64,000 nucleotides of DNA. It comes from Eledone cirrhosa (Eukaryota). A program made the position numbers and the translations under genes. The notes below the pieces were generated by a model that was not told the DNA's origin, made no database searches, and worked only from the letters and a program-made list of their open reading frames with translations. The number at the start of each line of letters is the position of its first letter. Position 1 is the first letter of the stretch. Location: contig OZ024740.1 of NCBI GenBank assembly GCA_964016885.1, positions 289,416,001 through 289,480,000 of the forward strand, given 5' to 3'. This document shows positions 643-10,798 of this stretch, piece after piece.

Positions 643-915
643 ATATATATATATATATATATATATATATATATATATGCATGCTACTGTACGTCTGTAT
701 ACATATATGTATGTACGTATACAAACATACTTACATTTAAGTAAGTGCCATACTAAGAGTGAGAAATGAAATTTCGTTTTCATTTTTTTCAACTTATCGT
801 TTTCGGTATGCCTGACCGATTTAACTCACTCAATATGCAAATTAGGCTGCTCAGCCGTTAATTTTCATAAGGAAATTATATACTTTCGAACGTTCAACTA
901 TCTGGCAGATGGGTA

Positions 916-960
916 AACGGTGCTGATGATAGCTAACAAGCTTGAAACTAGTACATCGTT
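916..960 (+). ncRNA. Minimal type I hammerhead ribozyme, one per ~450 bp unit
   Basis: aacggtg-CTGATGA-t-agct-aaca-agct-t-GAAA-ctag-TA-catcgtt: 7 bp stem I, 4 bp stem II, palindromic stem III and a GUA triplet. Identical copies lie at 1444, 2068, 3343, 3857, 4499, 6574, 7086, 7736, 9811 and 10311 (each 45 nt). Confidence 0.88.
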
Positions 961-3900
961 CCTGTATCAGTGTTGAACAAAAAGGTGACGTGGTTGCCTT
1001 AACACCGTATGGCATAAATTCAGGCTGTTCGCTTTGTTGACAAACAAACGAACAAAGCGGCCGGCGTTATAATAAACGTCGGCTAAACTGATGCGTGCAT
1101 ATATGTATGTGTACCTGTATGCATATGTATATATATATATATATATATATATATATATATATATATATATATATATATATATATATATATATATATATAT
1201 GTATATGCATGCTACTGCACGTCTGTATACATATATGTATGTACGTATACATACATACTTACATTTAAGTAAGTGCCATACTAAGAGTGAGAAATGAAAT
1301 TTCGTTTTCATTTTTTTCAACTTATCGTTTTCGGTATGCCTGACCGATTTAACTCACTCAATATGCAAATTAGGCTGCTCAGCCGTTAATTTTCATAAGG
1401 AAAGTATATACTTTCGAACGTTCAACTATCTGGCAGATGGGTAAACGGTGCTGATGATAGCTAACAAGCTTGAAACTAGTACATCGTTCCTGTGTCAGTG
1501 TTGAACAAAAAGGTGACGTGGTTGCCTTAACACCGTATGGCATAAATTCAGGCTGTTCGCTTTGTTGACAAACAAACGAACAAAGCGGCCGGCGTTATAA
1601 TAAACGTCGGCTAAACTGATGCGTGCATATATGTATGTGTACCTGTATGCATATGTGTATATATATATATATATATATATATATATATATATATATATAT
1701 ATATATACCCCCCACTCTCCTGAGCGTGAATCTAATAAACATTTGTCGTACTGCCTCTCTGTTCTGTCCCTGTTCAATTTTTTATTATATATATATATAT
1801 ATATATATATATATATATATATATATATATGCATGCTACTGTACGTCTGTATACATATATGTATGTACGTATACATACATACTTACATTTAAGTAAGTGC
1901 CATACTAAGAGTGAGAAATGAAATTTCGTTTTCATTTTTTTCAACTTATCGTTTTCGGTATGCCTGACCGATTTAACTCACTCAATATGCAAATTAGGCT
2001 GCTCAGCCGTTAATTTTCATAAGGAAAGTATATACTTTCGAACGTTCAACTATCTGGCAGATGGGTAAACGGTGCTGATGATAGCTAACAAGCTTGAAAC
2101 TAGTACATCGTTCCTGTGTCAGTGTTGAACAAAAAGGTGACGTGGTTGCCTTAACACCGTATGGCATAAATTCAGGCTGTTCGCTTTGTTGACAAACAAA
2201 CGAACAAAGCGGCCGGCGTTATAATAAACGTCGGCTAAACTGATGCGTGCATATATGTATGTGTACCTGTATGCATATGTGTGTATATATATATATATAT
2301 ATATATATATATATATATATATATATATATATATATATATATATATATACCCCCCACTCTCCTGAGCGTGAATCTAATAAACATTTGTCGTACTGCCTCT
2401 CTGTTCTGTCCCTGTTCAATTTTTTATTATATATATATATATATATATATATATATATACCAGGTGCGTTTTTAGTACCCCCTTTTTTATCATCATTTAC
2501 CTTATATATATACACATTTACACAAACATATAATATACACATATACACACACAAACACGCGCGCGCACACACACACACACACACACACACACACACACAC
2601 ACACACACACACACACACACACACACATACACACACACACACACACACACACACACATACGCACATATATATACATACATATGAATATATATATATATAT
2701 AATATATATATATATATATATGGAAAGTTATATTTAAATTGTTGGGTTACAACTAGTAAATATTTATAACTGATATAAAAGCACTCAACAAGTATTTGGA
2801 GTATATTTACGATATTAAATAAATGGAAACTATATTTATAAAACCATATTTATTTCATTATATATATTTCAGGGATATTATATTAACAATATGTTATGCC
2901 TTCTTCAGACAAAATACAATATAGACAGTTTTATAGATAAATAGATTTGACATACCGTTCAACATCGACTTGTATTTGAAAATCAACTTTTTCAAATACA
3001 AGTCGATGTTGAACGGTATGTCAAATCTATTTATATATAAAACTGTCTATATTGAATTTTGTCTGAAGAAGGCATAACATATTATATATATATATATATA
3101 TATATGCATGCTACTGTACGTCTGTATACATATATGTATGTACGTATACAAGCATACTTACATTTAAGTAAGTGCCATACTAAGAGTGAGAAATGAAATT
3201 TCGTTTTCATTTTTTTCAACTTATCGTTTTCGGTATGCCTGACCGATTTAACTCACTCAATATGCAAATTAAGCTGCTCAGCCGTTAATTTTCATAAGGA
3301 AATTATATACTTTCGAACGTTCAACTATCTGGCAGATGGGTAAACGGTGCTGATGATAGCTAACAAGCTTGAAACTAGTACATCGTTCCTGTATCAGTGT
3401 TGAACAAAAAGGTGACGTGGTTGCCTTAACACCGTATGGCATAAATTCAGGCTGTTCGCTTTGTTGACAAACAAACGAACAAAGCGGCCGGCGTTATAAT
3501 AAACGTCGGCTAAACTGATGCGTGCATATATGTATGTGTACCTGTATGCATATGTATATATATATATATATATATATATATATATATATATATATATATA
3601 TATATATATATATGTATATGCATGCTACTGCACGTCTGTATACATATATGTATGTACGTATACATACATACTTACATTTAAGTAAGTGCCATACTAAGAG
3701 TGAGAAATGAAATTTCGTTTTCATTTTTTTCAACTTATCGTTTTCGGTATGCCTGACCGATTTAACTCACTCAATATGCAAATTAGGCTGCTCAGCCGTT
3801 AATTTTCATAAGGAAAGTATATACTTTCGAACGTTCAACTATCTGGCAGATGGGTAAACGGTGCTGATGATAGCTAACAAGCTTGAAACTAGTACATCGT

Positions 3901-7973: not shown

Positions 7974-9522
7974 TGAATATAGACATAGAATATTCGAAAA
8001 TATTCTGTATGTTTATAATAAACATTTTGAAGACCTAATCGCTATAGAATAGAATACGTCACGTATTACAATTAGATTCTCGATAAAAGCAAGGGAAGTA
8101 ATCTACGCGTTTCATTCTTGTTAGAAATCATCAGGACTACATATCCAGTGCTTTTATCGAGAATGACACAGCTAGAGACTTATAGAATACTTAGCTGTGT
8201 ACAGGAACTGGTTTGAAAGAGCGGTTGCCGGTCCGGCAGAAATTAGAAATTGGAATAAATGCTCTGAAATAGCGATATATATGTGAATATAGACATAGAA
8301 TATTCGAAAATATTCTGTATGTTTATAATAAACATTTTGAAGACCTAATCGCTATAGAATAGAATACGTCACGTATTACAATTAGATTCTCGATAAAAGC
8401 AAGGGAAGTAATCTACGCGTTTCATTCTTGTTAGAAATCATCAGGACTACATATCCAGTGCTTTTATCGAGAATGACACAGCTAGAGACTTATAGAATAC
8501 TTAGCTGTGTACAGGAACTGGTTTGAAAGAGCGGTTGCCGGTCCGGCAGAAATTAGAAATTGGAATAAATGCTCTGAAATAGCGATATATATGTGAATAT
8601 AGACATAGAATATTCGAAAATATTCTGTATGTTTATAATAAACATTTTGAAGACCTAATCGCTATAGAATAGAATACGTCACGTATTACAATTAGATTCT
8701 CGATAAAAGCAAGGGAAGTAATCTACGCGTTTCATTCTTGTTAGAAATCATCAGGACTACATATCCAGTGCTTTTATCGAGAATGACACAGCTAGAGACT
8801 TATAGAATACTTAGCTGTGTACAGGAACTGGTTTGAAAGAGCGGTTGCCGGTCCGGCAGAAATTAGAAATTGGAATAAATGCTCTGAAATAGCGATATAT
8901 ATGTGAATATAGACATAGAATATTCGAAAATATTCTGTATGTTTATAATAAACATTTTGAAGACCTAATCGCTATAGAATAGAATACGTCACGTATTACA
9001 ATTAGATTCTCGATAAAAGCAAGATTTCTAACAAGAATGAAACGCGTAGATTACTTCCCTTGCTTTTATCGAGAATCTAATTGTAATACGTGACGTATTC
9101 TATTCTATAGCGATTAGGTCTTCAAAATGTTTATTATAAACATACAGAATATTTTCGAATATTCTATGTCTATATTCACATATATATCGCTATTTCAGAG
9201 CATTTATTCCAATTTCTAATTTCTGCCGGACCGGCAACCGCTCTTTCAAACCAGTTCCTGTACACAGCTAAGTATTCTATAAGTCTCTAGCTGTGTCATT
9301 CTCGATAAAAGCACTGGATATGTAGTCCTGATGATTTCTAACAAGAATGAAACGCGTAGATTACTTCCCTTGCTTTTATCGAGAATCTAATTGTAATACG
9401 TGACGTATTCTATTCTATAGCGATTAGGTCTTCAAAATGTTTATTATAAACATACAGAATATTTTCGAATATTCTATGTCTATATTCACATATATATCGC
9501 TATTTCAGAGCATTTATTCCAA
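7974..9522. repeat. Second block of 310 bp tandem and inverted repeats
   Basis: Matches 4737-6285 at an offset of 3237 bp. Confidence 0.95.
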
Positions 9523-10798
9523 TATATATATATATATATATATATATATATATATATATATATATATATATATGCATGCTACTGTACGTCTGTATACATA
9601 TATGTATGTATGTATACATACATACTTACATTTAAGTAAGTGCCATACTAAGAGTGAGAAATGAAATTTCGTTTTCATTTTTTTCAACTTATCGTTTTCG
9701 GTATGCCTGACCGATTTAACTCACTCAATATGCAAATTAGGCTGCTCAGCCGTTAATTTTCATAAGGAAAATATATACTTTCGAACGTTCAACTATCTGG
9801 CAGATGGGTAAACGGTGCTGATGATAGCTAACAAGCTTGAAACTAGTACATCGTTCCTGTGTCAGTGTTGAACAAAAAGGTGACGTGGTTGCCTTAACAC
9901 CGTATGACATAAATTCAGGCTGTTCGCTTTGTTGACAAACAAACGAACAAAGCGGCCGGCGTTATAATAAACGTCGGCTAAACTGATGCGTGCATATATG
10001 TATGTGTACCTGTATGCATATGTGTATATATATATATATATATATATATATATATATATATATATATATATATGCATGCTACTGTACGTCTGTATACATA
10101 TATGTATGTACGTATACATACATACTTACATTTAAGTAAGTGCCATACTAAGAGTGAGAAATGAAATTTCGTTTTCATTTTTTTCAACTTATCGTTTTCG
10201 GTATGCCTGACCGATTTAACTCACTCAATATGCAAATTAGGCTGCTCAGCCGTTAATTTTCATAAGGAAATTATATACTTTCGAACGTTCAACTATCTGG
10301 CAGATGGGTAAACGGTGCTGATGATAGCTAACAAGCTTGAAACTAGTACATCGTTCCTGTGTCAGTGTTGAACAAAAAGGTGACGTGGTTGCCTTAACAC
10401 CGTATGGCATAAATTCAGGCTGTTCGCTTTGTTGACAAACAAACGAACAAAGCGGCCGGCGTTATAATAAACGTCGGCTAAACTGATGCGTGCATATATG
10501 TATGTGTACCTGTATGCATATGTGTATATATATATATATATATATATATATACATACATACATACTTACATTTATATATATATATATATATGTAAATATT
10601 TGATCGTTACGCAGCTCTCGGACCTCTCGCACAAAATCATTTTGACGTAGATTTGTAAAATAGAGAACCGTAAAATTAATTACAAAAGTATGTTTCATTT
10701 AGACAGAGGGTAATATTGTAGATTATGTATTTACTTAGATATAATAGCAATAACGATAACTAATTTCAATTCTTTTAAATTGAATAATTATAACGGTT

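Follow-up and report, generated by a model that had tools for sequence, protein, structure and literature searches.

Retrozymes that lack long terminal repeats (LTRs) are known from corals, mussels, and axolotl as units of ∼170 to 400 nt, and Penelope-like elements (PLEs) are proposed as their helpers in the portion of the source covered here (PMC7229834). Likewise, the covered portion of a 2026 preprint links retrozyme families to the pseudo-LTRs (pLTRs) of PLEs (bioRxiv 10.64898/2026.07.22.740005). A PLE enzyme has been shown to cleave AT-rich DNA on both strands and to begin cDNA synthesis at two internal positions of the RNA, which correspond to the genomic tail (PMC11167929). Thus far, however, the proposal that PLEs mobilize animal retrozymes has drawn on co-occurrence and on homology to pLTRs. 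Here, we describe a 64,000-nt stretch of the Eledone cirrhosa genome (GCA_964016885.1, contig OZ024740.1, forward strand, positions 289,416,001 to 289,480,000; referred to as the window) that carries an array of a hammerhead-bearing repeat, family A. Family A is very probably a non-autonomous retroelement, a non-LTR retrozyme, copied into (TA)n tracts by a PLE reverse transcriptase (RT)-endonuclease, likely from circular or uncut multimeric RNA. What is new is a PLE insertion signature found directly on a retrozyme-type family, in large numbers, alongside a young intact PLE that shares the signature; the element class and the tail were already known, and family A is no new kind of system. An earlier reading of the window made from its letters (the sequence-only reading) had suggested that the family may be undescribed, and no report of family A or of cephalopod retrozymes turned up in the literature searched, with subscription papers, some supplements, and the repeat databases Repbase and Dfam lying outside its coverage. 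The words "ribozyme" and "retrozyme" do not occur in the main text, the part covered, of an Octopus vulgaris repeat annotation (PMC13282606).

Insertion anatomy of family A

Family A spans positions 678 to 10522 of the window as eleven 450-bp units on the + strand. These units differ from one another at 0 to 7 of 450 bases (mean, 3.0), and no base differs among the eleven copies of a 45-nt ribozyme motif. They are non-coding, the longest ATG frame being 31 amino acids in sense and 54 in antisense, and the sequence-only reading of eleven ∼450-bp non-coding units with one + strand motif was thus correct. Its term "satellite" did not hold, since the array is one of thousands of dispersed insertions, locally lengthened. 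The genome-wide copy count that it had proposed was made in 3.0 Gb, where a ribozyme pattern common to A and to a second family, B, gave 37,068 exact matches and its reversed control gave none. A B-only pattern, by which family B was counted, accounted for 13,145 matches, leaving at least ∼23,900 A-type copies; the A cleavage base plus 22 downstream bases matched at 15,358 places. The best A matches are 98 to 99% identical and spread over many contigs as short dispersed arrays, which does not fit local satellite DNA confined to one or a few long arrays. An older subfamily, A2 (∼422 bp), is 75 to 83% identical to A. Family A is a young repeat family with tens of thousands of copies. Three sequencing runs labeled as other organisms yielded two, zero, and two low-depth contigs, and no presence across species is claimed.

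Insertions were mapped at 79 loci, comprising the 20 best matches and 59 taken in chromosome order from the pattern lists. Dispersed A insertions consist of tandem units, often arranged as two inverted arms, within (TA)n. Their ends are strikingly fixed. Of 134 termini, 68 lie at unit positions 103 to 122 (mode, 120; the long end), 57 at 50 to 70 (mode, 62; the short end), and 9 elsewhere, and (TA)n adjoins 120 of the 129 standard termini. In unit 1, the two sites, which are the putative RT start sites, correspond to window positions 739 and 797 (+ strand), and the 58 nt between them form a PLE-type "tail" with a predicted hairpin. The two ends are also paired in a near-strict manner. A long end is combined with a short end in 40 of the 45 two-armed insertions, four carry a nonstandard end, and only one has two long ends, its arms being derived from different subfamilies; the combination of two short ends does not occur (P of the pairing, ∼2e-11). 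The rule thus holds in 40 of the 41 insertions with both ends standard, a regularity that speaks for coupled priming of the two ends. The chromosome-ordered loci taken by themselves give the same picture (27 long plus short, 0 concordant, and 3 other). Both arms have their 3′ ends facing outward, as would be expected of first-strand cDNAs primed from each side of a break. The inner, head-to-head inversion junctions (33 in total) are scattered in position, and 21 of them show an overlap of at least 2 nt compared to 17% at random, a figure that BLAST end extension may inflate. Single-armed, 5′-truncated copies are common, and arm lengths vary freely. In the two-armed loci tested for target-site duplication, no direct 14-mer copy of the unique flank was found, and an inverted flank copy was found in two. 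At L025/L104 and L027, ∼30 bp of unique target flank is repeated, inverted, at the opposite end of the insertion.

These features bear on two other explanations. In the first, family A is satellite DNA of the ordinary kind; DNA recombination or extrachromosomal DNA circles would have spread it, and the ribozyme would be a passenger. The higher-order duplications in the window array and the local periodicity in arms elsewhere fit such a view. However, the resident PLE shows the same combination of inverted arms in (TA)n, 5′ ends that vary, and 3′ ends that are fixed, with one in each arm; DNA recombination predicts none of these features, making this explanation highly improbable. The second is that family A is a non-autonomous DNA element, either a miniature inverted-repeat transposable element or Helitron-like, whose arms are terminal repeats. 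DNA transposons that insert at TA have inverted outer ends and TA targets, which gives family A a superficial likeness to them. This is nevertheless the least probable explanation of all, with two ends that differ by 58 nt, arms of free length, and common single-armed 5′-truncated copies standing against it.

A young PLE as candidate helper

A PLE-like frame in locus L029 led to a PLE family, P2, exemplified by loci L233 to L237 (G000:C3:66543500-66561000 and others). The P2 unit is 4,286 bp long and has an open frame of 1,278 amino acids, which includes a long insert rich in Asn and Thr. Identity is 100% in each of the 150 scored matches listed, many of which lie in tandem or inverted pairs; P2 is a very young intact PLE, and it is probably active now. 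Its repeat contains a hammerhead motif with a non-palindromic stem III. Its ends are 60 nt apart, both run into (TA)n, and in the paired cases seen there was one per arm. Ahead of the endonuclease-like end, the frame has a CX4CxxC motif, a cysteine motif associated with the PLEs Neptune, Nematis, and Naiad and tentatively linked to (TA)n targeting (PMC8557442). Pfam gave no match in P2 or in the PLE-like frames of the window, although marks of the RT and GIY-YIG domains were found by Pfam in relatives. Among named proteins, the one closest to a resident PLE protein is from Octopus vulgaris, at 70% identity, and by itself points to an octopod cephalopod as the probable host. What recommends P2 as a candidate is limited to its age, target, and tail length, and its role as the helper of family A is put forward tentatively.

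An alternative source of the enzyme is a long interspersed nuclear element (LINE) of the RTE, L1/Tx1, or CR1 type found in the window, in which case family A would be a SINE-like (short interspersed nuclear element-like) repeat. LINE-type open reading frame (ORF) fragments do occur in the window, and no homology of A to a PLE was found. On the other hand, no tRNA gene was found in window positions 1 to 12000, and two internal 3′ ends, one per arm, are the tail signature of PLEs (PMC11167929, PMC8557442), which is present in P2 as well. Mobilization by a LINE is accordingly very unlikely.

The hammerhead motif and the template RNA

The motif of unit 1 (window positions 916 to 960, + strand) is a type I hammerhead with its CUGAUGA core at 923 and predicted cleavage after 953. 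Stem I has 7 bp (one of them G.U), stem II has 4 bp, stem III is a 6-nt palindrome, and the triplet is GUA. No comparable motif arose in 20,000 dinucleotide shuffles of the A unit. An Rfam scan gave no match at the gathering score, the Hammerhead_HH9 model reaching 18.5 bits compared to the 52 bits required, and the other sub-threshold matches were microRNA models of TA hairpins. As defined in the covered portion of PMC4209133, the canonical metazoan type I ribozyme has the conserved core, a helix I of ∼6 bp, a helix II of 4 bp, and a helix III of 1 to 2 bp closed by a palindromic loop, a description that the A motif fits. The features given there for minimal hammerhead ribozymes (min-HHRs), namely a G10.1-C11.1 pair, an unpaired base after A9, and a long helix II, are absent from the A motif. 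The description of an "intact minimal hammerhead" in the sequence-only reading thus stands for the core and the palindromic stem III, but not for the stem II base, which is U.U, or for the helix sizes.

That reading had also proposed a retrozyme-type family with a hammerhead of the dimer type, and both the genome-wide dispersal and the predicted folding agree. For the natural dimer at positions 900 to 1500, the predicted double-hammerhead fold (−214.9 kcal/mol) sits 1.0 kcal/mol above the free minimum (−215.9 kcal/mol), compared to 16.8 kcal/mol for two monomer folds (−199.1 kcal/mol). In the free ensemble of this dimer, the swapped stem I pairs have a probability of 0.43 to 0.68, and the intermolecular stem III has only 0.02. 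Adjacent A hammerheads are predicted, with reasonable likelihood, to cut as a dimer. Monomers would measure ∼420 to 530 nt. The sequence-only reading had put them at about 500 to 625 nt and considered them longer than usual for animal retrozymes; this did not hold, as the covered portion of the 2026 preprint reports families of 51 to 972 bp (bioRxiv 10.64898/2026.07.22.740005). Folded as a linear RNA against 40 shuffles each, the monomer has a predicted self-pairing z score of −10.9 to −11.6 with the TA tract and −5.0 for the core alone. Whether the monomer then circularizes and serves as the template is, on prediction, evenly balanced.

Some properties of the template can be deduced from the copies. 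A linear monomer cut at the ribozyme would give cDNA only from position 62 or 120 back to 277, without the ribozyme. The copies, however, read through the cut site, and their 5′ breaks are not enriched there (2 of 66 within positions 272 to 282, as expected by chance); therefore, the template was either circular or a multimer that had not been cut. Copies without A at the cleavage base number only 207, and the 30 inspected break down into 27 point changes, 1 insertion, and 2 junctions. Breaks at 277 that happen to join an A would go unnoticed in this count, but 33 of the 36 cleavage-base places listed for the first 19.3 Mb of contig C1 overlap an intact ribozyme pattern. Second, the TA tract is copied with the unit because both arms of an insertion share private interruptions of the TA linker, and the AU microsatellite that the sequence-only reading placed within the unit indeed belongs to it. 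Private substitutions, like these interruptions, are common to the units of one insertion in both arms, and there is one main template per insertion. Separately, 5′ breaks cluster at unit positions 101 to 110 (window positions 778 to 787 in unit 1), with 9 of 66 breaks and a corrected P of ∼8e-4. This segment, at the tail hairpin and a U tract, is possibly a pause or protein-binding site.

The choice between circle and multimer is less clear. Family A may be mobilized by a PLE from an uncut linear multimer with no circle formed, the hammerhead being vestigial, slow, or used for another step. In vitro, PLE insertion can do without hammerhead cleavage (PMC11167929): it proceeds normally with ribozyme mutants and uses mainly unprocessed RNA, and none of the reads stop at the cut site. 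In family A, there is similarly no pile-up of 5′ ends at the cut site, the stem II base is U.U, a two-unit arm in L031 has a changed core base in both units, and locus L199 on C3 has G at the cleavage base in seven matched units. Conversely, the core and the fold are kept in A and B, which are otherwise unalignable (78% identity over 37 nt of the ribozyme only), with double changes in stems I and II. No variant recurs at any of the 11 catalytic positions among ∼50 insertions (52 loci, with an anchor downstream of the cut that fixed only unit positions 276 to 298). Recurrent ribozyme variants sit at N7 or in loop II, or they preserve pairing, with one exception in stem II. The units of an insertion mostly agree in their variants, as would be expected from a monomer bottleneck. 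Selection on the fold of the A ribozyme is likely from these patterns, and the uncut multimer, with somewhat less than an even chance of being the form used, differs from the explanation favored here in the form of the RNA only; PLE mobilization is common to both.

Several observations weigh against the circular, PLE-driven reading or narrow it. First, neither A nor B has DNA homology to the two PLE families compared (30 loci of one family, and P2), so that any helper or origin proposed for them is putative. Second, a lineage marker is uniform within an insertion in 259 cases, but in 95 it is mixed; of the latter, 34 come from two multi-template loci and many others lie in the hard-to-align U-rich tail. 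Third, arm-specific period-3 and period-4 variants in M24 mean that arrays grow also by local duplication, so array length is no proof of rolling-circle copying. Fourth, the A hammerhead is intact only with the qualifier that its stem II base is U.U in place of the usual G10.1-C11.1. Fifth, covariation of the ribozyme (pairing in 97% of cells, compared to 31 to 47% in slid controls, and double changes at 9 of 11 pairs) comes from nine related, motif-picked sequences of three lineages, drawn from A, A2, B, and a fifth motif at window position 49381. Sixth, the excess conservation of the core among dispersed copies, which the sequence-only reading had named as a check, was found in direction but not in significance: recurrent variants occur at 1 of 25 constrained sites compared to 24 of 136 others within family A (p = 0.066), which is only suggestive. 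Finally, PLE-type ribozymes are weak cutters in vitro according to the covered portion of PMC4209133, and among Xenopus retrozyme dimers only one of nine cleaved in the results covered from bioRxiv 10.64898/2026.07.22.740005.

The favored explanation, mobilization of family A by a PLE, would proceed as follows. A PLE enzyme, probably a dimer, would cut both strands within (TA)n. Each 3′ end would prime cDNA on the element RNA, one at site 62 and the other at site 120, synthesis of both cDNAs would continue beyond the ribozyme site, in many cases over more than a full unit, and the two would be joined head to head at short complementary stretches. Families B, C, and D would have landed in the TA linkers after A inserted, and local duplication would have extended the window array to eleven units. 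A bolder version, which we regard as rather unlikely, is that a PLE dimer cuts both (TA)n strands and primes both ends on one circular RNA at sites 58 nt apart, that each inverted insertion consists of two rolling-circle first strands joined head to head, and that the element's own (UA)n tract seeds new targets. If true, each insertion would plant targets for itself and for other PLE-driven families in a feed-forward loop, and TA microsatellites and nested retrozyme clusters would be seeded across the genome. Head-to-head PLE inversions, which PMC3846280 reads as antisense self-priming, could alternatively be explained by coupled priming. With a small RNA and a candidate enzyme in hand, the circle-versus-multimer question and the role of the ribozyme become open to in vitro testing.

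The window array, its neighbors, and described relatives

All of the A units in the window are on the + strand. Unit 1 lies at 678 to 1127, unit position 1 being window position 678, and unit 2 at 1206 to 1655, with its core at 1451 and predicted cut after 1481. They are followed by units 3 (1830 to 2279; core, 2075), 4 (3105 to 3554; core, 3350), 5 (3619 to 4068; core, 3864), 6 (4261 to 4710; core, 4506), 7 (6336 to 6785; core, 6581), 8 (6848 to 7297; core, 7093), 9 (7498 to 7947; core, 7743), 10 (9573 to 10022; core, 9818), and 11 (10073 to 10522; core, 10318). A terminal fragment (10553 to 10574, + strand) stops at the short fixed end, unit position 62, and then (TA)n. Cleavage-to-cleavage distances are 528, 624, 1275, 514, 642, 2075, 512, 650, 2075, and 500 nt, and GC content is 0.30 to 0.33 over window positions 1 to 10000. 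Segments 4261 to 7497 and 7498 to 10522 form an apparent higher-order duplication (99.6% identity over 3,037 columns). A hairpin with an AUAAUA loop at unit positions ∼382 to 407 (window ∼1059 to 1084) is kept between A and A2 with apparent compensatory changes. Elsewhere, in L199 (G000:C3:12,272,000-12,321,000 and beyond), G occupies the cleavage base of many units of a long A array. These units are predicted to be inactive, and the array looks like a retrozyme becoming satellite DNA through local amplification.

Units joined through (TA)n, as the sequence-only reading had them, account for 4 of the 10 junctions. For example, the linker between units 1 and 2 (1128 to 1205, + strand) was copied as part of the unit, and such linkers are also targets of later insertion. 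The other six hold further elements: the 80-bp element C in three, C plus D in one, and a 1.55-kb inverted array of 310-bp family B units in two. While the sequence-only reading saw the repeats and the ribozyme, it missed these nested elements and the PLE insertion signature. The B insertion at 4737 to 6286 has 3.4 units on the − strand (cores at 4897, 5207, and 5517) and 1.6 on the + strand (core at 6091), with outer ends at unit positions 309 and 34; each two-armed B copy seen likewise has two end sites ∼34 nt apart near these positions. A second copy at 7974 to 9523 (cores at 8134, 8444, and 8754 on the − strand and 9328 on the + strand) comes from local duplication. Window positions 1 to 53 are the end of a further two-armed B insertion, the rest of which lies upstream (L021 8115-9953). 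Also in L021, within 7 kb upstream of the window, are older remnants of A2 type (5007-5346; 74%) and B-like type (3236-3296; 81%). Element C (+ strand; 1708 to 1787, 2350 to 2429, 4123 to 4202, and 7356 to 7435) is the 5′-truncated 3′ end of a third element, longer copies of which (L037 and L038) have a hammerhead-like motif directly upstream. Element D (73 to 640 and 2460 to 3081) is an inverted fragment of ∼570 to 620 bp with a long-stem-II hammerhead motif on the − strand (cores at 467 and 2908). In 13 of 30 loci, a PLE-like ORF match has a D-type motif in sense orientation 1.08 to 1.33 kb downstream, a count from which L063 was dropped over its strand. Four hammerhead-linked families, A to D, are thus stacked in the TA tracts of the window.

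Further hammerhead-like and PLE-like remnants were found beyond the array. A short element at ∼49268 to 49532, with inverted ends in (TA)n, a hammerhead core at 49381, a U.U stem II base, and a palindromic stem III, is likely a fifth hammerhead family. A motif at 35730 to 35768 (− strand) has the U.U stem II base and a longer stem III. A broken PLE-like RT/endonuclease frame at 19669 to 21199 (− strand) belongs to an older, very abundant family with 87,190 first-look candidates and a 3′ repeat containing a D-type hammerhead motif. A PLE-like endonuclease fragment lies at 52007 to 52759 (+ strand); behind it, at ∼53140 to 53255, is a hammerhead-like motif that has decayed and whose stem II is long and stem III palindromic. 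LINE-type fragments occur at 11145 to 11774 (−), 41355 to 42302 (−), 44383 to 45045 (+), and 56854 to 60151 (+), three of the four with zf-RVT and endonuclease Pfam matches; the last is presumably a long frameshifted L1/Tx1-type copy. A 35-bp minisatellite occurs twice (32816 to 33175 and 38798 to 39204) inside a larger duplication, and a 321-bp two-copy tandem repeat lies at 26129 to 26765.

Compared with described systems, family A is closest to the metazoan non-LTR retrozymes. As far as these are set out in the covered portions of PMC7229834 and the 2026 preprint (bioRxiv 10.64898/2026.07.22.740005), it shares with them AT-rich non-coding tandem units with a type I hammerhead, co-occurrence with PLEs, and a circle predicted to be highly self-paired. 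In the results covered, the axolotl ribozyme HHR_Amex2 likewise has a U.U helix II base and cleaves more efficiently in dimeric form. Unlike the retrozymes described in those portions, the A unit carries its own (TA)n target, and the two fixed ends and inverted arms measured for A are not reported there. No pLTR homology was found for A in the two PLE families compared, whereas the covered results list 21 PLE matches among Xenopus families.

In its insertions, family A resembles endonuclease-positive (EN+) PLEs, namely PAc/Poseidon (PMC11167929), Neptune and Naiad (PMC8557442), and Adineta Penelope (PMC3846280), with partial tandems, an inverted 5′-truncated arm, a tail at one end, AT or (TA)n targets, and a hammerhead upstream of the start sites. 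Unlike them, A has no ORF, and its start sites lie on the far side of a TA tract, ∼280 and ∼340 nt downstream of the preceding cut site. The tails are 58 nt in A, ∼34 nt in B, 60 nt in P2, and ∼75 nt in D, compared to the 30 to 40 nt reported for EN+ PLEs. The A ribozyme shares a type I topology, a palindromic stem III, and a predicted dimer fold with PLE min-HHRs, as covered from PMC4209133, and with the short-stem-III dimer hammerheads of Lunse et al. as cited in PMC6765202; it differs from these in its 7-bp helix I and 4-bp helix II, as in canonical metazoan type I ribozymes, and in the lack of a G10.1-C11.1 pair. Finally, newt satellite 2 and the Schistosoma hammerhead satellites, or W-elements, are also satellite-like hammerhead tandems with signs of mobility in the portions covered (PMC7229834, PMC8490949). 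Their hosts are unrelated to that of family A, whose mobility, unlike theirs, is tied to fixed PLE-type ends and microsatellite targets.

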